From assembly GCA_963812565.1 (NCBI GenBank), contig CAWEVR010000006.1, forward strand, positions 216,199-280,198: 64,000 nt of DNA, written 5' to 3'. Positions within the stretch are counted from its first letter, which is position 1; the number at the start of each line of letters is the position of its first letter. Source of the DNA: an uncultured Acidobacteriota bacterium. GTDB lineage: Bacteria; Acidobacteriota; Terriglobia; Acidiferrales; UBA7541. Below are positions 5,259-39,157 of this stretch, one piece after another. The notes under the pieces were generated by a model. It saw nothing but the letters and a program-made list of their open reading frames with translations, had not been told where the DNA came from and made no database searches. The position numbers and the translations under genes are program-made.

Positions 5259-7631
5259 GTGGACCCGATCGTCTCTCATTATCGGATCGTTGAAAAAATC
5301 GGGGAAGGCGGAATGGGCGTCGTTTACCGCGCCCATGACGACCGGCTGAACCGCGATGTCGCGTTGAAATTCCTCCCCGCGGAATTGAACGAAGACATGT
5401 CCGCCCGGGACCGGCTGATCCGCGAGGCTCGCACGGCCTCGGCCCTGAACCATCCCAATATCTGCACCATCTATGACGTCTGCGAAGAAAGCGGCCGGAC
5501 TTACATCGTCATGGAGTACGTGAAAGGCCGCCCGCTCGCCGAGCAGATTCGCGAGGGCGGCCTCCCCGACGAGACCGTGATTCGCTACGGCGAGCAAATC
5601 TCCGACGCGCTGTCTCATGCGCATCAACAAGGCGTGGTACACCGCGACCTCAAGAGCTCGAATGTCATGATCACGCCCGAAGGTCGCGCCAAGGTTCTTG
5701 ACTTCGGACTGGCGAAGCGCGTCGCGAGCGCCGAAATCGGTGCGAAAACACTCTCGCTTGAGTCCCAGAGCGAGCAACGCACAGTAGCAGGGACTCTCCA
5801 CTATATTGCGCCGGAGATATTTCGCGGCGAGCCCGCGGATGCCAGGAGCGACATTTGGTCGCTCGGCGTGGTGCTCTACGAGATGGCGGCCGGACAGCGC
5901 CCGTTTCGCGGGAAGACGGCGTACGATTTAAGTTCTGCCATCCTCAGTGGTTCGCCTGAGCCGTTCCACACTAGCGTTTCGCCGGGTCTGCGCGCTGTGA
6001 TCGACCACTGCTTGGCCAAGGAACCGGGAGAGCGCTACCAACATGCCAGCGAAGTGCACGCCGCTTTGGGTGCCCTCGCGTCATCGAGCGCGATTTCGCC
6101 CCTCAGCGGAATTGTGCTGGAGGTCAGAGCCGCCGCCCCGCGCTTCCGCCGCCTTTTCCTCGTTTCCGTCGCCGTTTTGGGGTTGCTGATTGTGGGACTT
6201 GTGCTGGCCAAACAGCAGGGTGCGAAGAAGCAGCGGCTAGCCGTGCCCATCGCGGCCCCCATTCGATCGCTCGCCGTGCTGCCGCTCGAGAATCTCTCCG
6301 ACGATCCCAAGCAGGACTACTTTGCGGATGGCATGAGCGACGCACTGATTACCGATCTTTCGCAGATCAAGGACCTGCGTGTGATTTCGCGCACTTCCGT
6401 AATGCAATACAGAGGCGCGCATCTGCCCGTTTCCCAGATCGCCAAGGAACTACGCGTGGACGCCGTCGTGGAAGGCTCGGTGCTGCGCTCGGAAGATCGT
6501 GTCCGCATTTCGGCGGAGCTGGTCCGCGGCGATACCCAGCAAAATCTTTGGGCCCAGAGCTACGAGCGTCCTTTCAACGACGTGCTCTCGCTTCAAAACG
6601 ACGTGGCGCGCGACATCGTCAAAGAAATCCGGATCCGGCTCACGCAGGAGGAACAGGCGAGGCTCTCGAGCAGCCGCTCCGTTGTGCCGGCGGCGTATGA
6701 CGCGTATCTCCAGGGGCGCTACAACTCAGCCAAGCGAACCGGCGAAGCATTGAGCCAGGCCGTGACGGACTACCAACAGGCAATCCAGCTCGATCCCACA
6801 TACGCGCCTGCTTATGCGGGGCTCGCTGGGGCATTAGCCTTGCTGGCTGATTACAAAGATGTGGCGCCTGCACTCATGTTGCAGAACGCTGAAGCGGCCG
6901 CCCAAAAAGCTCTGCAGCTCGATGACAGTCTTGCCGAGGCTCACGCCGCTCTCGGCTTAATTCGGGAATTCCGCCTTGATTGGGCCGGTGTGCTCGCTGA
7001 GTTTCAACGCGCCATCGAATTAAACCCCGGCGACGCCAACGCTCATCACTGGAACGCTCTGGCCCTTTCCGTTGCGGGGAAGAACGACCAAGCCATCGCC
7101 GAGATCAAGTTGGCTCAGGAACTCGACCCGCGCTCCCCGATCATCAACGCAAACGTCGCCTGGTGTTTTTACCTGGCTGGGAACTACGACGAGTCCATCG
7201 AACAAGCTCGCAAGACGCTGGAGCTGGACCCGAACTTTCCCGTGGCTCACGGATATCTCGGGCAAGCGTATCTCGAGAAGGAGAAATTTGAAGACGCCTT
7301 TGCAGAGTTGCGAAAAGCGCTTTCTCTCTCCGGAAATGAAACGTCTTACAAAGCGGAGCTTGCAAACGCTTACGCGGTTGCGGGAAGGAAGCAGGAGGCG
7401 CTCGCCATCTTGCGAGAATTTCTTGCGCTTTCCTCTAAACAGTATGTCTCTTCATACAACCTCGCTCTCGTGTATGCCGGCTTGGGCGACAAGGATAAGA
7501 CCATCCAGTGGCTGAACAAGGCGTACGAGGAGAAGGCCTTGCGCGTGATCAACATCAATGTCCATCCGAGATTCGCAAGCCTTCGCTCCGACCCGCGTTT
7601 CCAGGCCTTGGTTCACCGGATGGGTCTCTAG
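5259..7631 (+). CDS. Ser/Thr protein kinase with TM segment, TolB-N-like domain and C-terminal TPR repeats
   Basis: Kinase motifs GEGGMGVVYRA, VALKF, HRDLKSSNV, DFGLA and APE. These are followed by a TM helix, an LAVLPLENLSDDP...YFADGMSDALITDL block, and several TPR-like repeats. Confidence 0.9.
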   Translation: MDPIVSHYRIVEKIGEGGMGVVYRAHDDRLNRDVALKFLPAELNEDMSARDRLIREARTASALNHPNICTIYDVCEESGRTYIVMEYVKGRPLAEQIREGGLPDETVIRYGEQISDALSHAHQQGVVHRDLKSSNVMITPEGRAKVLDFGLAKRVASAEIGAKTLSLESQSEQRTVAGTLHYIAPEIFRGEPADARSDIWSLGVVLYEMAAGQRPFRGKTAYDLSSAILSGSPEPFHTSVSPGLRAVIDHCLAKEPGERYQHASEVHAALGALASSSAISPLSGIVLEVRAAAPRFRRLFLVSVAVLGLLIVGLVLAKQQGAKKQRLAVPIAAPIRSLAVLPLENLSDDPKQDYFADGMSDALITDLSQIKDLRVISRTSVMQYRGAHLPVSQIAKELRVDAVVEGSVLRSEDRVRISAELVRGDTQQNLWAQSYERPFNDVLSLQNDVARDIVKEIRIRLTQEEQARLSSSRSVVPAAYDAYLQGRYNSAKRTGEALSQAVTDYQQAIQLDPTYAPAYAGLAGALALLADYKDVAPALMLQNAEAAAQKALQLDDSLAEAHAALGLIREFRLDWAGVLAEFQRAIELNPGDANAHHWNALALSVAGKNDQAIAEIKLAQELDPRSPIINANVAWCFYLAGNYDESIEQARKTLELDPNFPVAHGYLGQAYLEKEKFEDAFAELRKALSLSGNETSYKAELANAYAVAGRKQEALAILREFLALSSKQYVSSYNLALVYAGLGDKDKTIQWLNKAYEEKALRVININVHPRFASLRSDPRFQALVHRMGL

Positions 7632-7684
7632 GTTAATTCGCAGGTAAGCCTGCCAAGTGGACTGCGCCCGCCGGGCAATTCGCC

Positions 7685-7713
7685 TTGACCGCTTGGAGGC
7701 GGAGGACTAGACT
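7685..7713 (+). promoter_or_regulatory. Candidate sigma70-type promoter (TTGACC-17 nt-TAGACT)
   Basis: The hexamers were read directly from the sequence. They lie about 85 nt upstream of the small ORF at 7800. Confidence 0.35.
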
Positions 7714-7799
7714 CCGGTGCTCTAACCCGCGTTCCGGGTAGAATTCGATTCACGGCCTCGAGCATTCACTCCGACAACGGTTTCTGCTGGGAGGTGAAT

Positions 7800-7976
7800 A
7801 TGAGCAGCGTCCAGGTTTCGGTGCGTTCGATTCGAAAAGAAATCGCCAAGGCGGAAAGGGAGCTACGGGCACTCCGCCGGCGCGTCGGCAAAGCAAAGAA
7901 GCAGAAAATCGATTGTGAACTCCGCCTTCTAAGCGTGGCCAAAGCAGTGATTCCAATCGGTTGCTTTGCCCGGTAA
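7800..7976 (+). CDS. Small hypothetical protein (58 aa), candidate substrate or partner of the downstream dehydrogenase
   Basis: GGAGG lies 5 nt before ATG 7800. The N-terminal half is Lys/Arg-rich and looks helical. The C-terminus is hydrophobic (IDCELRLLSVAKAVIPIGCFAR) with two Cys. It ends 61 nt before the next gene. Confidence 0.4.
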   Translation: MSSVQVSVRSIRKEIAKAERELRALRRRVGKAKKQKIDCELRLLSVAKAVIPIGCFAR

Positions 7977-8037
7977 TTTCGTACGGAGAAATATTCGGAA
8001 CTGTTCTCGCCGGGCGCGCGTCCGGTCGAATTGAGGC

Positions 8038-9189
8038 ATGCGAAAAGCAAACCAACTGGCTTTTCGGCGTTCCCCTTTCGTCGTTTCTTATTGGCAGGAC
8101 GGGCGCCTCGTCTTCGAGAATTTTGCAACGTGCATGCGCGCGAGTGCCGCGCCGATTGCTTGTGAAGTTCTGAACTTTTTTGACCGTTGGCGTCCGGCCC
8201 AAGCGCTTTTTTTGCACCTGAACGAATACGATCCTTCAGCTCTGCGAAAAGCGATTGATGATCTTGTCAGTCACTCCTTTTTGAATCGCTCCGACCGCAA
8301 AGAAGGCCGCATCGAACGGCTCCTGTCCTCCTGGAAAGACTGGAATCCGGCGGCAGGCTTCCTTCATTTCTCCACTCAGAACCCCCCGTATGAAACCGAT
8401 TACGCAACGCTCGCTCAAGATCTCCGCCGATTGGCTCGCAGGGCGCCGATGCCGAATCCGGTCAAGCGCTACGCCCGTGCTCCGCAGACGCGTCTACCGC
8501 CGCCGCGGACTCGCGGCGAGTTTGCGCGTGCGCTGCTCGAGCGGCACACTTGGCGAAGATTCTCCCGCCAGCCGCTGGCGCTTTCAGATCTGGGGACGTT
8601 GCTCGGGCTTACGTGGGGCGTTCGTGAGTGGGTTTCCGTGCCCGGCGTTGGGCGCTTTGCTCTCAAGACGTCGCCTTCTGGCGGAGCGTTGCATCCCATC
8701 GAAGCCTACGTCTTGGTGCGGCGCGTCAAGGACACAGCTCCCGGCCTCTATCATTACGATTCGGAGCGTCACCATCTGGAATTGCTGCGGCGCGGTGCGG
8801 CGAGCCGCCAAATCACGAGTTACCTGGCGGGCCAAACGTGGTTTTCGGACGCAGCGGCCCTTATTCTAATGACCGCTGTATTTCCGCGAACGCAGTGGAA
8901 GTACCATTCTCCCCGAGCTTATCGCGTCGTGCTGATTGAGGCGGGACATCTCTGCCAAACATTTTGCTTGGTCGCCACGTGGCTCGGGCTTGCGCCATTC
9001 TGCACCATGGCGCTCGCGGAGTCCCGCATCGAAAAAGATCTTGGAATCGACGGCGTGACGGAGGGCATTATTTACGCGGCCGGAGTTGGGCGCGTCCCGT
9101 CAGGGCAGGACTGGCGCACAGCGGCGGTACCGAAACTGCCGGGCGAAAGAAAACGGCGGAGCACAAGGGATCTTCAACGCAAGAAATAA
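8038..9189 (+). CDS. SagB/ThcOx-type (nitroreductase-fold) dehydrogenase with an N-terminal PqqD/RRE-like domain
   Basis: The C-terminal half carries SPSGGALHPIEAYV, GLYHYD, AYRVVLIEAGHLCQ and GIDGVTEGIIYAAGVG, as in the SagB-type dehydrogenase domain. The N-terminal ~165 aa has a winged-helix-like pattern (PIACEVLNFFDRW...ALRKAIDDLVSHSFL). Confidence 0.85.
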   Translation: MRKANQLAFRRSPFVVSYWQDGRLVFENFATCMRASAAPIACEVLNFFDRWRPAQALFLHLNEYDPSALRKAIDDLVSHSFLNRSDRKEGRIERLLSSWKDWNPAAGFLHFSTQNPPYETDYATLAQDLRRLARRAPMPNPVKRYARAPQTRLPPPRTRGEFARALLERHTWRRFSRQPLALSDLGTLLGLTWGVREWVSVPGVGRFALKTSPSGGALHPIEAYVLVRRVKDTAPGLYHYDSERHHLELLRRGAASRQITSYLAGQTWFSDAAALILMTAVFPRTQWKYHSPRAYRVVLIEAGHLCQTFCLVATWLGLAPFCTMALAESRIEKDLGIDGVTEGIIYAAGVGRVPSGQDWRTAAVPKLPGERKRRSTRDLQRKK

Positions 9190-9195
9190 ATTTCG

Positions 9196-10227
9196 CTAGG
9201 CGCGAACTTCCCATGTATCGCCCGCGCGAAGAAGCTTTGCGAGATCGCCTTTTCCCTTTTTCGTCTCGACATCGAGAATCTGCTTGGCGATGAGATCCTC
9301 GTAACGCGGCAAGTCCCACGCGCGCAAAACGCCGATGGGAGTGGGGAAGCCGGGTCGTTGCTCCATGTGCGCGAGCAGAAATGCGTAGGCCGGGCGCGGA
9401 TGATTCTCGTCGTGAACGAGCAAATCCTTTTCGGTGATCCCATTGCCGAGCTGGACCACCTCCAAATCGAGACCTTTCAGCCGAATGCCCTTGTCGCGGT
9501 TCTTGCCGAAGATGAGCGGCTTGCCGTGTTCGAGCTGAACGATGTGCTCGCTGCGTGCATCTTTTTCAGTCAGGTCTATCCATGCGCCGTCGTTGAAGAT
9601 GTTGCAGTTCTGAAGTATCTCGACGTAAGCCGCGCCTTGGTGGGCGGCCGTTTTTTTCAACGTATCCTTCAAATGTTGTTGGAACACGTCCACAGAGCGA
9701 GCTACAAAAGTGCCTTCGGACCCAATTGCCAGCGCAATGGGATTGAACGGTCGGTCAGCGGTACCGTATGGAGTTGACTTTGTCTTTTTGCCGTATTCAG
9801 AGGTCGGCGAGTATTGCCCTTTGGTCAGGCCGTAGATCTTGTTATTGAACATGAGGACTTTAATCCCCACGTTTCGGCGCAGCATGTGAATCGTATGGTT
9901 GCCGCCGATCGAGAGCGAGTCGCCGTCGCCCGTAACCACCCAGACGTCGAGGTCCGGCCGCGCCAGTTTTACGCCGGTGGCCACAGCAGGCGCGCGCCCG
10001 TGAATCGTGTGGAAGCCGAATGTGTTCATGTAATACGGGAATCGGCTGGAGCAGCCGATGCCGGAAACGATCACGAATTTTTCGCGGGGAATCCCAAGCT
10101 CAGCGAACACGGACTGCACGGCGGAAAGGATCGCGTAGTCTCCGCAGCCCGGACACCAGCGCACCTCCTGGTCCGTCTGGTAATCCTTTTTCGTGTAGAC
10201 CGGTAAAGTGGCCGTAGTCATTTCCAT
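9196..10227 (-). CDS. korB: 2-oxoacid:ferredoxin oxidoreductase, beta (TPP-binding) subunit
   Basis: Carries RWCPGCGDYAILSA, GIGCSSRFPYY and VTGDGDSLSIGGNH, the signatures of the KorB/OorB family. Confidence 0.9.
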   Translation of the reverse strand: MEMTTATLPVYTKKDYQTDQEVRWCPGCGDYAILSAVQSVFAELGIPREKFVIVSGIGCSSRFPYYMNTFGFHTIHGRAPAVATGVKLARPDLDVWVVTGDGDSLSIGGNHTIHMLRRNVGIKVLMFNNKIYGLTKGQYSPTSEYGKKTKSTPYGTADRPFNPIALAIGSEGTFVARSVDVFQQHLKDTLKKTAAHQGAAYVEILQNCNIFNDGAWIDLTEKDARSEHIVQLEHGKPLIFGKNRDKGIRLKGLDLEVVQLGNGITEKDLLVHDENHPRPAYAFLLAHMEQRPGFPTPIGVLRAWDLPRYEDLIAKQILDVETKKGKGDLAKLLRAGDTWEVRA

Positions 10228-13064: not shown

Positions 13065-13688
13065 ATGTCGCTGACGAAAAGGCAGAAGGAAGTTCTGAAC
13101 TACCTGGTGAGTTTCCTGAACAAGAACGGCTACTCGCCGAGCTTTGAGGAAATTGCGCACGCGCTGAAGCTGACTTCGCTCGCGACGGTGCACAAACATC
13201 TTCAAACGCTCGAGAAAAAGGGGTTCATCCGCCGCGGCTACAACCAGAGCCGATCGATTGAAGTCTTGCAGCTTCCGAAACCGGTACGCGAGCAGGTGCT
13301 CGATCGCCACATCGTGGAGCTGCCGCTCGCCGGACGCATCGCCGCCGGGCGCCCTCTCGAAGCGGTCGAAGACCGCGAAACGATTTCGCTGGCCGATTTT
13401 GCGCGCGGCCAAAACACATTCGTGCTTCAGGTAAAGGGCGATTCCATGCACGAGGACCACATCCTCGATGGCGATTTCATTGTCGTCGAGCAAACGCAAG
13501 TAGCCAATCCAGGCGAGATTGTCGTCGCGCTAGTAGGCGAAGATGAAGCCACCGTGAAAAGATTCTATCGCGAAGCCGGCGGGAAGGTTCGTTTGCAGCC
13601 GGCAAACTCGCAGATGTCGCCGATCGTGGTGTCGGCCACGGATGTCAGAATCCAGGGCCGCGTGGTCGGCGTTCTACGGAAGTATTAG
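13065..13688 (+). CDS. lexA: LexA SOS repressor
   Basis: N-terminal winged HTH (LTKRQKEVLNYL...GYSPSFEEIA), an Ala-Gly cleavage site (LPLAGRIAAGRP), the catalytic Ser in VKGDSM and the Lys in ATVKRF. Confidence 0.95.
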   Translation: MSLTKRQKEVLNYLVSFLNKNGYSPSFEEIAHALKLTSLATVHKHLQTLEKKGFIRRGYNQSRSIEVLQLPKPVREQVLDRHIVELPLAGRIAAGRPLEAVEDRETISLADFARGQNTFVLQVKGDSMHEDHILDGDFIVVEQTQVANPGEIVVALVGEDEATVKRFYREAGGKVRLQPANSQMSPIVVSATDVRIQGRVVGVLRKY

Positions 13689-30824: not shown

Positions 30825-33800
30825 TCAGTTTACCGTGCGGACATCCTCGGGGAGGATCAGGGTAAAGCTGCAGTCGCCGGTGACGGCGGCGCAGGAAAGC
30901 GTGCCGCGGCGCACAATTTTCAGCGGCGAAGCATCGGGAAACATTCCATCGCTATCCAAGGAGCGGAGTTTCTCACCCGACGACCGAAGTGCATCACTTC
31001 CGCTTATGAATTGCACGGCTTTGATTCGAGCGGCAGGGTGGTCCGGGGAGGGCGCAAGCAGAACAAAGAAATCGGCGGCAACCTTGCTTTCCCCAAGTTT
31101 CTGAAGGGAAAGCGTGCGCATGGCCGCAAGTTCCGGACGAGCCTTGGTCACGAGGCCTTCGATCCGGGGATCCTTTTCGTCCGAGCCGAGAAGAGAAGCG
31201 AGGCGGCCGCGCGTTTCCGGGATGGAGTGCAGCGCGGCGATGCCGAGAGCATACATGTGGATGGCGCGATCCTTCTGTCCCAGTTTTTCGTAAATCTGCC
31301 CGAGATGATCAGCCACTTCTCCGTGCTGATTGAGCAGCCAGGAAGCGCGAACAAAACGGTCCGCCGTCGAAAGATCGCCTTTTTGGAAATAAACCCAACC
31401 GAGAGTGTCCCAATACGCGCCGATGCTCGAGACTTCACCGAGGTCGTCGAGTGTGATGTGCGCGAGCTCGACGTTGCGCAGGTTTGCAGCCGTGCGTGAA
31501 ATTGCGGATTCGGCATACTGCTGCGCCTTGTCCAGCTCGATTTTGTGGTCGGCGAGATTGTAAGCGATGTTGTTCCATACGGCGGGAGTCTGCGAAAGCT
31601 GCGCGGCCTTCTCGAATGCCGCGAGCCCTTTTTCCCGTTCTCCGGTGTTCAGATAAGCCTGGCCAAGGCTGATTCGAAGGCCCGCGTCATCGGGCGAGAG
31701 AATCGTGGCCTTGTCGAGCTCCGGGATGGCTTCGGCGTACTTGTGCTGCTCGACGAAGAGCTGCCCGAGCGCAGCGTGAGCGAGGGAATCAAGCGGATTC
31801 ACTTCAATCTGCTTGCGATATGCATCCGCCGCGCTGTTGTACATCTGCTGCTGCTGCAGGGCGATGCCGAGATAGTCGTACGCGTGCTCGTCGTAGGGAT
31901 TCACGTCAATCTGGTGGCGGAATGCGTCCGCCGCTTCGTTGAATTGTCCGACGCGGAGAAAGCCGAGTCCAAGGTAATTCCACGCCAGCTTGTGTTTCGG
32001 ATCGAGTTCGACGACGCGCTGAAACAGTGGAATTGCCGCCGTGGGGTTGCCGGAATTCATCGCGGCAATTCCTGCTTCCAGCAATTCGTCCGGTTTGACG
32101 GTCGAGGGGATCGCGGGCGCCCCCGGGGTGGAATTTTCAGCGACAAGCACCTGACTCTCATCGGACTCTACCGCTCGCGCGAACGCCATGTAATCACCGG
32201 TGCGCGCAGCGGGCAAACTGCGCATCTTGAAATTGAGCGAGCGCTCGACATCGAGGGTGTGGTTTTCAAAGCGATAGCTCGATTTGAATTCCGCGTAATC
32301 CCGCTGGACGCCGACGGCCACAGGCGCCTGCGCCGTAAATGTTTCTGGCAGCGTCAGCTTCAGCGTCGTGATTACGTCGAGCGGGCTGCCGAGCTCGATC
32401 GGTTCCGTGTTGTCCTCGGAAACATTGGGCAATCCAATATTCGGAAGAGGGAGCGCAACCTTCGCTTTCCGGCTGGACCAATCGAGAAAATTCGCTTGCG
32501 AAAATTCGAGATCGAGCACGAAGGGATCCTTTGTTTCGGAGGGATCGCCGGGCTTCACGGAGGTGACTTCCCCTTTTAAGCCGTCGAGCGAAGCGATGGT
32601 CTGGGCGAGCTGCTTCCACTGCGTCTCGGGTGTGCGGCGAAATGCGGCGCGCAACGCGAACTCATTGTCGCCGCGGAGAACGTAGTGGAACTTTGCTTCG
32701 AGCTTGCCTAAATCGCTGACGCGGGCTTCGATTTCGACGCGCTGCACGGAAGGGAAAGGCGGGTCTGCCGGCGTTTCGACGATCTTGCCTGCGCCGTCCG
32801 GCGGCACGAGCAGTGCGGATTTGTCGCGCAGCGTACGGGAGAGAAGACGGAATGGCGCGACCTCCGCCGTGGAATCCATCCAGATGAGCTCATTGCCTTT
32901 CGGCACAGCGGTGATGACATGGTCGAATTGCGACGGCGACGGCACAGAAACGTCGAGCTTGCGCGAAAAAGGAATCAGGACGGCGTCGGCCCGGATTCCG
33001 GCGGCGTCGAGCATGGCGGTGAGCAGCGTGCTTTTGTCTTTGCAGTCGCCGTATTGGTTTGCGAAAACCTCTGCAGCGGAATGCGGCTGATAGCGTCCGA
33101 GGCCGAAAGACAGACTGACGTAGCGGATGTTTTTTGAGACGTATTCGTAAAGCGCATCCATCTTGTCGAGTTCATCGGTGCGACCCTGTATAAGCTCCTG
33201 CGCTTTCGCCCGGATTTCAGGGGTCGGCTCCGTGCGGCCTCGCTCGAGCTTCGCATACCACTGGGCCACTTCTTTCCAGCTTGCGAAGGTGGTGAGCTGC
33301 ACGGCCGGAGCCTTCGATTTATCGGACTGCGTTTTTTTCTTTTTCGCTTCCTCCTCACCGGGCCGAGTCAGATTCGTGTGTTTCCAGCGGTAGCTGGTCC
33401 AGCCATCCGCTTCGTTCTTCTCGTAGGGGAAAAGAGGAGATTGCAGGTTCACGGCGCGGCCTCGCGGAACGCGAATCTCGAGGCGCTCGTCAAGAACAAT
33501 GGCGCCTTCGAGAAAATTTTGCTCGAACCAGAATTGGTCGGGCGCGAGAGCTGTCACAAGGCGCGTCACGATTTCATATTCGATCGTATCCCCCGGACGG
33601 AGGGAGGGAACCGTGATGTGCTTTTCCTTGTAGTCGGTGTACACGGGCGCATCGCGCGCAACCGTTGCCGTCATTTCCTTCACGGCATCGGGTCCGGCAT
33701 TCACAACGGTCGCGTCGGCTTTTCGCACGCGCACATAGCGCACGTCCATTTGCTCGCTCGTGGAGTTGTAGCCAAAAACGAGTTCGCCCAACTGTTGCAC

Positions 33801-34049
33801 GCCGGCTTCACTCTGTACATGGATGCGGGCCGTGACGGCGCGTTCGCCGGTGCCGTCGTTTTCAAACCGCGCGGCAGTGTAGTACTGCTCGACGACGAAA
33901 GGTTCCTGCGAGTAATCGGAAGGGTTCTGCTTCTGCTTTGCGGGCGGCGGCGCGTTCTGCGCAGGCACGGGAGCCGAGGCTGGTTGCTGGGCCGAGTTCG
34001 CGCCAGACAAAATCAACGCACAAGACAGGACCAGCCAGAGGCGCTTCAT
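30825..34049 (-). CDS. Large secreted protein with a transglutaminase-like cysteine protease core, a DUF3857-like N-terminus and C-terminal TPR repeats
   Basis: Signal peptide MKRLWLVLSCALILSGANSAQ, a transglutaminase core QYGDCKDKSTLLTAML, and multiple TPR-like repeats (DPKHKLAWNYLG..., NPYDEHAYDYLG...). Confidence 0.8.
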   Translation of the reverse strand: MKRLWLVLSCALILSGANSAQQPASAPVPAQNAPPPAKQKQNPSDYSQEPFVVEQYYTAARFENDGTGERAVTARIHVQSEAGVQQLGELVFGYNSTSEQMDVRYVRVRKADATVVNAGPDAVKEMTATVARDAPVYTDYKEKHITVPSLRPGDTIEYEIVTRLVTALAPDQFWFEQNFLEGAIVLDERLEIRVPRGRAVNLQSPLFPYEKNEADGWTSYRWKHTNLTRPGEEEAKKKKTQSDKSKAPAVQLTTFASWKEVAQWYAKLERGRTEPTPEIRAKAQELIQGRTDELDKMDALYEYVSKNIRYVSLSFGLGRYQPHSAAEVFANQYGDCKDKSTLLTAMLDAAGIRADAVLIPFSRKLDVSVPSPSQFDHVITAVPKGNELIWMDSTAEVAPFRLLSRTLRDKSALLVPPDGAGKIVETPADPPFPSVQRVEIEARVSDLGKLEAKFHYVLRGDNEFALRAAFRRTPETQWKQLAQTIASLDGLKGEVTSVKPGDPSETKDPFVLDLEFSQANFLDWSSRKAKVALPLPNIGLPNVSEDNTEPIELGSPLDVITTLKLTLPETFTAQAPVAVGVQRDYAEFKSSYRFENHTLDVERSLNFKMRSLPAARTGDYMAFARAVESDESQVLVAENSTPGAPAIPSTVKPDELLEAGIAAMNSGNPTAAIPLFQRVVELDPKHKLAWNYLGLGFLRVGQFNEAADAFRHQIDVNPYDEHAYDYLGIALQQQQMYNSAADAYRKQIEVNPLDSLAHAALGQLFVEQHKYAEAIPELDKATILSPDDAGLRISLGQAYLNTGEREKGLAAFEKAAQLSQTPAVWNNIAYNLADHKIELDKAQQYAESAISRTAANLRNVELAHITLDDLGEVSSIGAYWDTLGWVYFQKGDLSTADRFVRASWLLNQHGEVADHLGQIYEKLGQKDRAIHMYALGIAALHSIPETRGRLASLLGSDEKDPRIEGLVTKARPELAAMRTLSLQKLGESKVAADFFVLLAPSPDHPAARIKAVQFISGSDALRSSGEKLRSLDSDGMFPDASPLKIVRRGTLSCAAVTGDCSFTLILPEDVRTVN

Positions 34050-34436: not shown

Positions 34437-34465
34437 TTGACATGAGTCGTTGTTTTTCCTATACT
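34437..34465 (+). promoter_or_regulatory. Strong sigma70-type promoter (TTGACA-17 nt-TATACT) for the str/S10/spc/alpha cluster
   Basis: A consensus -35, a 17-nt spacer and a 5/6 match at -10. It lies about 312 nt upstream of the rpsL GTG. Confidence 0.6.
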
Positions 34466-35657: not shown

Positions 35658-37925
35658 ATGGCACGCCAAGTCCAACTCGATCAGACCCGCAACATCGGGA
35701 TCATGGCGCACATCGATGCCGGCAAGACCACGTGCACCGAGCGGATCCTGTTCTATACGGGTGTGACCTATAAGATCGGCGAAGTCCACGACGGCACGGC
35801 CACCATGGACTGGATGGAGCAGGAGCGCGAGCGGGGAATCACGATTACATCCGCGGCGACGACAGCTTCCTGGAAGCGGTTTGACAAGATGATCCGCATC
35901 AATATTATCGATACGCCCGGGCACGTGGACTTCACCGTCGAGGTCGAGCGATCGCTTCGGGTTCTCGACGGCGCCGTGGCGATCTTTGACGCCGTGGCCG
36001 GCGTTCAGCCGCAGTCGGAGACCGTCTGGCGCCAGGCAGACAAGTACCGCGTTCCGCGCATTGCCTTCATCAACAAGATGGACCGCATCGGCGCTGATTT
36101 CGATCATTCGATCCGCTCGATGCGCACGCGGCTTTCGGCCCACCCCGTTCCCATTCAGTTTCCCATCGGCAAAGAAGACAGCTTCATCGGCGTGATTGAT
36201 TTCATCGAAGAGCGGGCCATCATCTGGAAGGAAGAGACGCTCGGCGCGGAGTACGAAATTCTTCCGCTCGAAAAACTTTGGGATGTGGCGTATCTGAAGA
36301 CCCGGCCCGAGCTCGAGACGGCGGTGATGGCTTCGAAATTGACGCCGGCGTTTTATAAGGAGCACCGCGACAAGGTGGTGGAATACATTGCCGAGCACGA
36401 TGACGCGATTTTGGCAAAGTGGCTCGAACAGCACACGCTCGAGCCGGCTGAACTGCGCGCCTCGATTCGCCGCTCGACGATCGCGCTGAAGCTCGTTCCC
36501 GTGGTTGCGGGCTCGGCGTTCAAGAACAAAGGCATTCAGCCGTTGCTCGACGCGATTGTGGACTTCCTGCCTTCGCCGGTGGATGTGCCGCCCGTGGAAG
36601 GGCTGGACCCGAACAACGAAGACGAAGCGCTTCTGCGACGCGCGTCGGACGATCAGCCGTTTGCGGCCCTGGCGTTCAAGATTATGACCGACCCTTATGT
36701 CGGACACCTGACGTACATCCGCGTTTATTCCGGGGTGCTGAAGTCCGGGAATTCGGTTTACAACTCGTCGAGGAAAACGCGCGAGCGCGTCGGGCGCTTG
36801 CTGCGAATGCATGCGAATAAGCGCGAGGAAATCGAATCGATCGAAGCCGGCGACATCGCCGCGTGCGTGGGCCTTAAGAATGTGACGACCGGCGACACGC
36901 TTTGTGATGAAGACAAGCCGATCGTCCTTGAATCGATTGAATTTCCCGCCCCCGTAATTTCCGTAGCGATTGAACCCAAGACCAAAGCCGACCAGGAAAA
37001 AATGGGCACTGCGCTGGGAAAACTCGCGCAGGAAGATCCCACGTTCCGCGTACACACGGACCACGATACGGGTCAAACGCTGATTTCCGGAATGGGCGAG
37101 CTGCACCTGGAAATTATCGTGGACCGCATGATGCGCGAGTTCAACGTGCAGGCGAACGTCGGCCGCCCACAGGTGGCGTACCGCGAAACGATCATGAAAG
37201 TCGCGAGCGGAGAAGGGAAATATATCCGCCAGACCGGCGGACGCGGCCAGTACGGCCACGCTAAGCTTTCCGTTCATCCGCTGCCGAGCGCGACGCATGA
37301 AGACATGCACGAAATGTCCACCGACGAAATCGACGCGCTGGCGAAACAAGTGGCCGGCAAGGGCGGCAAGTGGCACTTCGACAAGGAGCATCGCCTGCTG
37401 TTCATCGACAAGGTGATCGGCGGTTCGATCCCCAAGGAATTTATCCAGCCGATTGAGAATGGTGTGCGGGAAGCGATGGAAACAGGCATTCTCGCGGGCT
37501 ACGAAATGGTGGATATCGCAGTCGTTCTCGAAGACGGCAGCTACCACGACGTGGACAGTTCGGAAATGGCCTTCAAGATTGCGGGGTCGATGGCGTTCAA
37601 GGATGCGTGTCATCACGCGAATCCGAGACTGCTCGAGCCGATCATGCGCGTGGAAGTGGTGGTGCCCGAGGACTACATGGGACCTGTGATCGCGGACCTG
37701 AATTCGCGCCGCGGGCAGTTGCAAGGACGCGAATCGCGCGGCGGCAGCGAAATCATCAACGTTCAAGTTCCCCTAGCCGAGATGTTCGGGTACGCCACGG
37801 AAATCCGCAGCCGCACGCAAGGGCGCGGAAGCTTTACGATGCATTTTTCGCATTATCAGCAAGCACCGGCGGGGGTCGCCGAGGAAGTCATTGGGAAAGC
37901 GACCGGCAGGACCGTCAAGACGTAG
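35658..37925 (+). CDS. fusA: Elongation factor G (755 aa, longer than usual)
   Basis: [28 protein letters not shown], and GGRGQYGH ... GGSIPKEF with extra residues between them. Confidence 0.95.
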
Positions 37926-37969
37926 GGAAAACATTCAATCGAGCACGCTGAAGCTGAGGAGCAAGGACG

Positions 37970-39157
<1,188 letters not shown>

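Follow-up and report, generated by a model that had tools for sequence, protein, structure and literature searches.

A cassette of a small peptide gene, a SagB-type flavoenzyme gene and a receptor kinase gene in soil Acidobacteriota, with a possible role in making and sensing a modified peptide

What does a SagB-type dehydrogenase do at a locus where a small peptide gene precedes it and no YcaO gene is found nearby? The textbook role of SagB-type enzymes is to oxidise azolines in dependence on a YcaO cyclodehydratase, and the question is raised by a stretch of 64,000 nucleotides (hereafter the window) from an uncultured Acidobacteriota bacterium (GenBank assembly GCA_963812565.1, contig CAWEVR010000006.1, positions 216,199 to 280,198 of the forward strand). 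An earlier note, made from the letters of the window, had described there a 58-aa open reading frame (ORF) followed by a 383-aa enzyme, and had proposed either an orphan oxidoreductase or a self-contained, minimal two-gene peptide-modification module. We compared this locus with its relatives and, as judged from the conservation of the genes, the peptide and the SagB-type enzyme are a conserved pair without a nearby YcaO. The module is favoured over the orphan oxidoreductase because the small ORF is conserved and under selection, the N-terminus of the enzyme has a fold like that of a RiPP (a ribosomally made peptide that is modified after translation) recognition element (RRE) and no YcaO lies nearby; it is, however, not a two-gene module. 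A receptor kinase gene completes a three-gene cassette that is common in soil Acidobacteriota and that may make and sense a modified peptide.

The comparison covered 80 loci from species-representative genomes and three loci from metagenome look-ups, all of Acidobacteriota, whose enzymes are 52-85% identical to that of the window. Below, counts out of 84 refer to locus sources and counts out of 82 to the non-redundant loci that were left after redundancy removal. The small ORF of the window (7800-7976, forward strand) encodes the product MSSVQVSVRSIRKEIAKAERELRALRRRVGKAKKQKIDCELRLLSVAKAVIPIGCFAR, which contains Cys39 and Cys55 (codon 7962-7964), as the earlier note had read. In a jackhmmer search of the 84 sources, with the window peptide as seed, 82 had a homologue directly upstream of the enzyme gene; at the remaining two, L064 and L081, the upstream small ORF is divergent, with a Cys at the equivalent place. 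Counted over the non-redundant loci, peptide genes were recovered in 80 of 82 by profile search and divergent candidates in the other two by eye. After trimming to the best start codon, the 115 peptide genes have a median length of 72 aa (range 55-97), start with ATG in 109 cases and are all preceded by a Shine-Dalgarno-like site. Their differences are distributed over the three codon positions as 0.25/0.18/0.45, a coding-type pattern, and a ratio of non-synonymous to synonymous change (pN/pS) of 0.125 over 868 pairs indicates purifying selection. By these comparative measures the 58-aa ORF is a genuine gene, tied to the enzyme and present at orthologous loci. A tandem pair of peptide genes occurs in 33 of the 80 profile-positive loci. 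Within 10 kb on either side of the enzyme gene, 113 profile matches lie directly upstream of it, 10 are convergent and directly downstream and one overlaps its start, and no copy was found elsewhere in that range. In the ten loci with a convergent copy (L040, 11129-11452 on the reverse strand; L052, L055, L056, L057, L060, L071, L074, L080 and L083) the enzyme gene is flanked by peptide genes on both sides.

The window peptide consists of a basic, helical, leader-like N-terminal part of about 54 aa, Cys55 and a three-residue tail, FAR. In the family, the N-terminal region of about 55 aa, with 27% Lys plus Arg, opens with [IVL]-x-[FV]-[ST]-[LV] and continues with heptad-spaced Ile or Leu; a Ser or Thr near the N-terminus is conserved in 99 of 113 aligned peptides. 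In the same alignment a Cys occupies a single column in 106 sequences, and the remaining seven have a Cys 7-12 residues from the C-terminus. Cys55 of the window is this near-invariant residue, and Cys39 is not conserved. The tails are variable (0-42 aa), with clade motifs such as CRPPTxFGQTFTTK, CPx(6-9)FGQWFTTNPK and CGRMTHGFNPL. The family thus combines the features of precursor genes, namely a Shine-Dalgarno-led gene beside a modifying enzyme, a conserved leader-like part, a variable tail and frequent copies. No Pfam or NCBIfam model matched it (the window peptide, and 37 members by Pfam), and genome mining that starts from YcaO or from known precursors would miss these peptides. A profile of 37 peptides searched against 5.8 billion proteins gave 21 matches, all annotated as hypothetical, and did not reach beyond the collected loci; the exact window product is present in public annotation, unnamed (P0125). 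We discarded the idea that the ..IPIGC-FAR end is a lipobox or a CaaX box, because the Cys follows a charged helical region of 54 aa and the orthologous tails measure 0-42 aa. A ribbon-helix-helix identity of the small protein was likewise unsupported by the Pfam scan of the 37 members.

After a gap of 61 nt, the ORF at 8038-9189 (forward strand) encodes the 383-aa enzyme, with the SPSGGALHPIE and YRVVLIEAGH stretches that had suggested its family. The SagB-type identity proposed in the earlier note was confirmed by profile searches: PF00881 (Nitroreductase) scored 63.6 bits against a cutoff of 23.5 (3e-17; residues 167-352, nt 8536-9093), and TIGR03605 scored 124.4 bits against a cutoff of 78.4 over residues 182-352. 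By its domain profile, the enzyme belongs to the SagB domain family. The best named NCBIfam model was TIGR04511, 'putative peptide maturation dehydrogenase', with 194.5 bits, which is below the cutoff of 240 and makes the enzyme a relative of that family and not a member. A profile built from 35 homologues matched the PDB entries 3EO7 (5e-36), ThcOx (2e-21), McbC (8e-10) and BmdC. The residues K288-Y289 (nt 8899-8904) align with K201-Y202 of McbC and with the WKY of ThcOx; in McbC, the Lys-Tyr pair takes the C-alpha proton while the hydride moves from C-beta to the flavin mononucleotide (FMN) (PMC6395948). K288, Y289 and R169-x-T171-W-R173-x-F175, including W172, are invariant in the 35 homologues. 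By analogy with the nitroreductase family, the motif RxTWRRF would be of the FMN-binding type, and the invariance of the Lys-Tyr pair and of this motif argues for an active enzyme. The earlier note had supposed a chemistry other than azoline oxidation; the Lys-Tyr pair retained here is of the McbC type. Taken with the models described below, the protein is best described as a predicted RRE-fused SagB-family FMN dehydrogenase.

The full-length AlphaFold2 model of the enzyme (pLDDT, the predicted local distance difference test score, 71) had ThcOx chains as best matches (E 3e-16), and as these matches span 374-386 columns they take in the N-terminal region. A separate model of residues 1-101 (pLDDT 82.5) presents a small beta-sheet followed by three helices (strands 8-11, 15-20, 23-28 and 33-36; helices 39-47, 54-60 and 66-78). 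The fold search with this model returned almost only RREs, which supports the RRE identity of the N-terminus at the level of the fold. TigE was the best match (E 4.6e-4, TMq 0.71), and the others were TbiB1 with leader, ThcOx, the PbtF RRE, a lasso B1 protein, CteB, TruD/LynD, TbtB, PqqD, MccB, McbB and NisB; the top matches were RRE domains with TMq values of 0.5-0.7 and probabilities up to 1.0. At the sequence level no PqqD or RRE match was obtained, Nitroreductase being the sole Pfam family at E <= 1 for the whole enzyme. The earlier note had assigned an RRE winged helix to residues 1-165: the fold stands in the predicted structure, but its extent is limited to residues ~5-90 (nt 8050-8307), and residues 90-165 are a conserved linker modelled with low confidence. 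In ThcOx, residues 7-86 have been described as a TruD-type leader-binding 'peptide clamp' (PMC5108345), and the whole protein has been likened to McbC with RRE copies fused to it (PMC6395948). The linker of our enzyme contains a motif, W99-x2-W102-N-P-x2-G107-F-x-H110-F (nt 8332-8370), that is invariant in the homologues and recognisable at 30-35% identity as WxxW...FHFxTRD; it is modelled at a pLDDT below 50 and may become ordered on peptide binding or dimerisation.

The gene upstream of the operon (5259-7631, forward strand) encodes a receptor-type Ser/Thr kinase of 790 aa. Its kinase domain (residues 8-261, nt 5280-6041; Pfam Pkinase 7e-59) is followed by a single transmembrane segment (residues ~296-320, nt 6144-6218) and by a FlgO-like/tetratricopeptide repeat (TPR) sensor (residues 332-790, nt 6252-7628), recognised by many TPR families and a weak FlgO match and predicted to be extracytoplasmic from its position after the single transmembrane segment. 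Its co-location with the enzyme gene was tested in two ways: tblastn placed a kinase homologue next to that gene in 81 of 84 sources, and ORF clustering did so in 79 of 82, i.e. in about 96%. In two of the three sources that were negative by tblastn, the enzyme gene lies within ~570 nt of a contig end. The link persists where the synteny with korAB, the M23 peptidase and LexA is lost, and also where the kinase gene has been relocated to the downstream side and the opposite strand, as in ten loci. The two-gene module of the earlier note is therefore not sustained, the kinase/TPR sensor being co-located in 79-81 of 82-84 loci and also at 33-38% enzyme identity; in the same note the neighbours were correctly read, in that a convergent korB stop lies 6 nt past the enzyme stop, but the kinase is not an incidental neighbour. 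On the basis of this co-location, the kinase/sensor gene is a conserved third member of the cassette. Among the partners, 78 of 81 have a kinase domain, and 74 of these 78 have one transmembrane segment; the motifs HRDLK, DFG and APE are found in 68, 73 and 78 of them, respectively. The sensor part behind the membrane segment is often the best-conserved portion of the partner and weakly matches FlgO, the periplasmic region of CadC and HilA/EilA. Within it, residues 392-550 of the window kinase match positions 308-464 of TIGR04510, with 44 bits against a cutoff of 400.

The search for YcaO covered the window's 20 other largest ORFs and, in the 82 loci, 7 kb on either side of the enzyme gene, where the ORFs were clustered. 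No YcaO, ThiF-like enzyme or dedicated transporter was found among the 20 ORFs, which are housekeeping (e.g. EF-G, EF-Tu, SecY, RpoA and IMPDH), and the 7-kb flanks of the enzyme gene in the 82 loci have no recurrent YcaO, which extends to both sets the earlier statement that no cyclodehydratase is adjacent. Shadow-ORF clusters aside, only two large families are common to nearly all of these neighbourhoods, the enzyme (81) and the ~816-aa kinase homologue (79). Clusters of thiazole/oxazole-modified microcins (TOMM) or linear azol(in)e-containing peptides (LAP) have an adjacent YcaO with an E1-like or Ocin-ThiF partner and a core rich in Cys, Ser and Thr. Here, no such gene is among the 20 window ORFs and no such family is conserved within 7 kb in the 82 loci, and the peptides have one near-invariant Cys and short variable tails. 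As defined by an adjacent YcaO, and as far as gene content tells, the enzyme is not part of a TOMM cluster. A functional tie of the cassette to korAB, the M23 peptidase or LexA was ruled out, because none but the closest clade keeps their synteny (korAB in 37 of 84 loci, the M23 peptidase in 28 and LexA in 19). At 30825-34049 (reverse strand) the window also encodes an unrelated 1074-aa protein with a DUF3857, a transglutaminase-like core and a long TPR array.

The operon itself is preceded by a predicted sigma-70-type promoter, TTGACC-17-TAGACT (7685-7713, forward strand), and the Shine-Dalgarno sequence GGAGG (7790-7794) lies 5 nt ahead of the ATG at 7800; these coordinates were borne out by the sequence. 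The promoter is the sole such site within 7400-9400, where 0.3 would be expected, and the relaxed pattern TTGACN-17-TANACT has two matches in the 64-kb window versus 0.01 expected. In an alignment of four loci with 70-85% enzyme identity, both hexamers and the GGAGG are invariant and the flanking sequence drifts. In 71 of 80 loci the relaxed pattern lies within the 200 nt that precede the first peptide gene; 3.0 Mb of locus sequence, counted on both strands, contain 100 matches in total. By this count, the presence of the motif upstream of the peptide gene exceeds chance. Between the -10 hexamer and the start codon the spacing is near-constant (median 84 nt) and the sequence diverged (window 7714-7799; L007 9343-9424). 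A possible long-range CGCGCAC...GTGCGCG pairing was seen by eye in this 5' untranslated region (UTR) in several loci. A regulatory RNA in the ~80-nt 5' UTR was considered and dropped, with no Rfam match and no RNAalifold consensus structure for 21 sequences.

The second exact match in the window, and the only one besides the peptide promoter, is TTGACATGAGTCGTTGTTTTTCCTATACT at 34437-34465 (forward strand), ~1.2 kb upstream of the EF-G/EF-Tu genes (35658-39157). Because of this location it may be a housekeeping promoter, in which case the peptide promoter would be of comparable consensus quality. In many Acidiferrales loci a further match recurs ~6.4 kb downstream of the enzyme gene, directly 5' of a lexA homologue (e.g. 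L017 16437-16465, L021 16443-16471, L029 16374-16402); the window lexA (13065-13688) has no exact match.

Relatives of the enzyme extend well beyond these loci. An exhaustive search gave 685 clusters (50% identity) at E <= 1e-30 and 6616 at E <= 1e-10, with full-length matches down to ~33% identity, and 364 pattern-matched stretches of the species-representative genome collection encode a relative. Ten distant relatives all score above the TIGR03605 cutoff and reach 141-192 bits with TIGR04511, below its cutoff of 240. The order kinase/TPR protein, small ORF (57-87 aa), enzyme is found at L086, L087, L089 and P0324, with enzymes of 33-38% identity; the L086 kinase is 33% identical to the window kinase over its full length. 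At L084, a sensor-only protein with an N-terminal membrane anchor, 31% identical to residues 332-790 of the window kinase (E 2e-50), is followed by a 71-aa ORF and the enzyme gene. The receptor is thus retained at four of the five non-Firmicute distant loci and is sensor-only at the fifth. As read from these alignments, the extracytoplasmic sensor is the constant piece of the partner, and its cytoplasmic head varies. The small proteins of the five loci (type B) form a separate family with an ELETGLEE core, an ..NHILASL end and no Cys. In Bacillus and Priestia, including their plasmids, a conserved ORF of 26-29 aa (..KPCxxEYxxRVNxEHGETSPxK) precedes the enzyme gene, which is followed by a transporter of the major facilitator superfamily (MFS). 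This variant, seen at L085 (521-598), L088 (5814-5903) and L091 (Bacillus pseudomycoides plasmid pBTZ_1), lies on plasmids or by transposases, and P0277 is a natural enzyme-MFS fusion of 786 aa. An upstream small ORF is present at every Acidobacterial locus and at every inspected distant metagenome or Firmicute locus, the Sinorhizobium locus standing outside this count; at the distant loci it belongs to other sequence families than the window peptide. Across loci, the third component is either an exporter or a TPR sensor, which may or may not have a signalling head. The plasmid search returned relatives in other contexts only, namely Bacillus with MFS and a Sinorhizobium small-molecule cluster. 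The latter (L090, Sinorhizobium medicae plasmid NZ_CP149880.1, 6995-8113) has a 34%-identical RRE-SagB homologue beside AMP-binding, cobalamin-dependent, 3-dehydroquinate synthase II, hydroxylase and phosphopantetheinyl transferase (PPTase) genes, which looks like a small-molecule-type cluster; the record has a second homologous place. At L087 (1800-2444, reverse strand) and L089 (2257-2931, forward strand), a protein with an OmpR-type Trans_reg_C and an FHA domain adjoins the cassette kinase and could be its downstream transcription factor.

Considering these data together, we propose a YcaO-independent, RiPP-like peptide-maturation cassette coupled to a receptor, a reading to which we give an even chance. 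The strong, conserved predicted promoter would drive one or more precursor-like peptide genes and then the enzyme gene. The RRE-like domain of the enzyme would bind the conserved N-terminal part of the peptide, for which the [IVL]-x-[FV]-[ST]-[LV] strand near the N-terminus is the best candidate segment. The SagB-type FMN domain, as a nitroreductase-fold dimer, would then carry out an alpha,beta-dehydrogenation that needs no preceding YcaO step, the Lys-Tyr pair abstracting the C-alpha proton and the hydride passing to FMN. In this clade the target would be the conserved Cys where the leader-like part meets the variable tail, or a site close to it. The matured peptide would be exported, and the FlgO-like/TPR ectodomain of the receptor would most likely sense it, or otherwise couple the system to signalling. 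The fullest form of this proposal, a new kind of peptide-signalling circuit among the diderm bacteria of soil, in which the matured, exported peptide is the ligand of the co-encoded TPR receptor (with a Ser/Thr kinase head here, a cyclase in TIGR04510 systems and none in some loci), is a tentative one that we regard as improbable as it stands. The ligand-receptor relation is the weakest part of the model; it is argued from the sensor being the constant partner whatever its cytoplasmic head, from relatives that use an exporter instead and from the FHA and OmpR-type regulators that flank the kinase in two loci.

Several observations weigh against such a maturation cassette. The E-values of the RRE fold matches are modest (4.6e-4 at best, most between 0.004 and 1). 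The peptide has no signal or double-glycine motif, its N-terminal part is long and better conserved than many leaders, and the window tail past the Cys has three residues. The Acidobacterial cassette has no conserved gene for a protease, an exporter or immunity (82 loci, 7 kb on either side). The type-B peptides are conserved to their C-terminus and lack Cys, which therefore cannot be the universal target. Additionally, a kinase beside an operon can simply regulate that operon. Much of this would fit an intracellular regulatory module, in which the small helical protein is a stable partner and no peptide is released; it could be a kinase substrate or adaptor, or a ribbon-helix-helix-like DNA binder, and the winged-helix-plus-flavin protein a redox sensor or regulator under kinase control. 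The long conserved helical part (~55 aa) with its heptad-spaced Ile/Leu, the Ser/Thr near the N-terminus in 99 of 113 peptides, the short window tail, the Cys-less type-B proteins, the lack of a conserved protease or exporter and the FHA and OmpR-type regulators beside the kinase in L087 and L089 all agree with it. We nevertheless hold this explanation unlikely: the 37 members matched neither ribbon-helix-helix nor any other family, variable tails, tandem duplication and additional convergent copies are what precursor genes typically show, the constant partner is an extracytoplasmic sensor even without a kinase, the Firmicute relatives are paired with an MFS exporter, and the enzyme keeps an invariant catalytic Lys-Tyr pair and FMN motif.

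A classical TOMM/LAP azoline oxidase, oxidising to a thiazole the Cys thiazoline made by a YcaO encoded elsewhere, is less probable still. The enzyme does have a SagB domain above the TIGR03605 cutoff and a conserved McbC-type K-Y pair, its closest solved structure, ThcOx, is itself an azoline oxidase, and a Cys is present in 113 of 113 Acidobacterial peptides. Against this, the window's 20 other largest ORFs include neither a YcaO nor a ThiF-like gene, and there is no further gene family conserved within 7 kb in the 82 loci; the peptides have one or two Cys at most, in cores that are not Cys/Ser/Thr-rich, the distant cassettes carry Cys-less peptides, and the linkage is to a receptor and not to a cyclodehydratase. 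As for the orphan oxidoreductase, whose upstream ORF would be spurious or unrelated to it and whose kinase neighbour would be there by chance, the enzyme family does occur in other contexts, such as the Sinorhizobium plasmid with AMP-binding, B12-dependent and PPTase genes. This reading is nonetheless contradicted by the conservation data and has almost no probability left, the small ORF being conserved and selected, the promoter conserved and the kinase adjacent in ~96% of loci, also after rearrangements.

A large clade that is tied to a peptide and a receptor, and not to a cyclodehydratase, points to a different substrate chemistry and biological role for these enzymes. The Acidobacteriota are an abundant group that is difficult to cultivate and that has many orphan Ser/Thr kinases bearing TPR ectodomains. 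If true, the signalling reading would give a ligand to this very large orphan class of bacterial TPR-ectodomain receptors, and the co-encoded candidate ligand, maturase and receptor make a directly testable three-gene system.

We found no literature on a kinase-peptide-SagB cassette. The arrangement of precursor peptide, modifying enzyme and membrane sensor kinase side by side, and the lack of a dedicated exporter as in comQXP, recall the Gram-positive peptide quorum-sensing cassettes comQXPA and agrBDCA, although only as a functional analogy: those systems use an isoprenyl transferase or AgrB together with histidine kinases of unrelated protein families, whereas the putative receptor here is a Ser/Thr kinase of eukaryote-like type that carries a TPR ectodomain and belongs to a diderm phylum. 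In the predicted structures, the closest known protein to the enzyme is ThcOx (PDB 5LQ4/8PZ5), the cyanobactin azoline oxidase, which, like the microcin B17 synthetase dehydrogenase McbC (PDB 6GOS), fuses N-terminal RRE-type domain(s) to a SagB/nitroreductase FMN domain with a Lys-Tyr catalytic pair (PMC5108345, PMC6395948). The window enzyme differs from both in having one RRE-like domain instead of two, at 23-24% identity, and its cassette has no neighbouring YcaO heterocyclase, is coupled to a receptor kinase and has a precursor with a single conserved Cys instead of a heterocyclisable core.

TfxB and TfxC of tiarin/trifolitoxin systems are RRE-bearing SagB-family enzymes for which a non-azole modification has been proposed, with YcaO as an accessory (bioRxiv 10.64898/2025.12.02.691738). 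By description they resemble our cassette in that an RRE-bearing SagB-family FMN dehydrogenase gene directly follows a Shine-Dalgarno-led small precursor gene. Unlike tiarin loci, each of the 82 clustered loci holds a single SagB-family gene and not a TfxB/TfxC pair, the cassette has no aminoacyl-tRNA synthetase, immunity or exporter gene, and the window peptide lacks the tiarin-defining Gln motif, many Acidiferrales tails having a conserved F/Y-G-Q-x-F.

The other close parallel lies in names of NCBI's family collection, TIGR04510 ('putative peptide modification system cyclase') and TIGR04511 ('putative peptide maturation dehydrogenase, SagB_rel_DH_2'), on which, together with TIGR04509, no literature was found. 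We take TIGR04509 to be the 'NHLP-related RiPP peptide' of the TIGRFAMs descriptions, and the three families presumably form one gene neighbourhood. A TIGR04511 system would have a dehydrogenase scoring at least 240 bits with a TIGR04510 cyclase and a TIGR04509 peptide as neighbours; here the enzyme and the ten distant relatives fall below that score, the cassette peptides match no NCBIfam model, and the head of the window partner is a Ser/Thr kinase (none in some loci) and not a cyclase. Nevertheless, the enzyme aligns over positions 108-368 of the 380 of TIGR04511 with its 194.5 bits, and in both systems a small peptide is combined with a dehydrogenase related to SagB and with a large TPR protein that bears a signalling head. 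We therefore regard the cassette as a sister of the uncharacterised TIGR04509/04510/04511 systems, which, alongside TfxB/TfxC, are the closest to it in concept.

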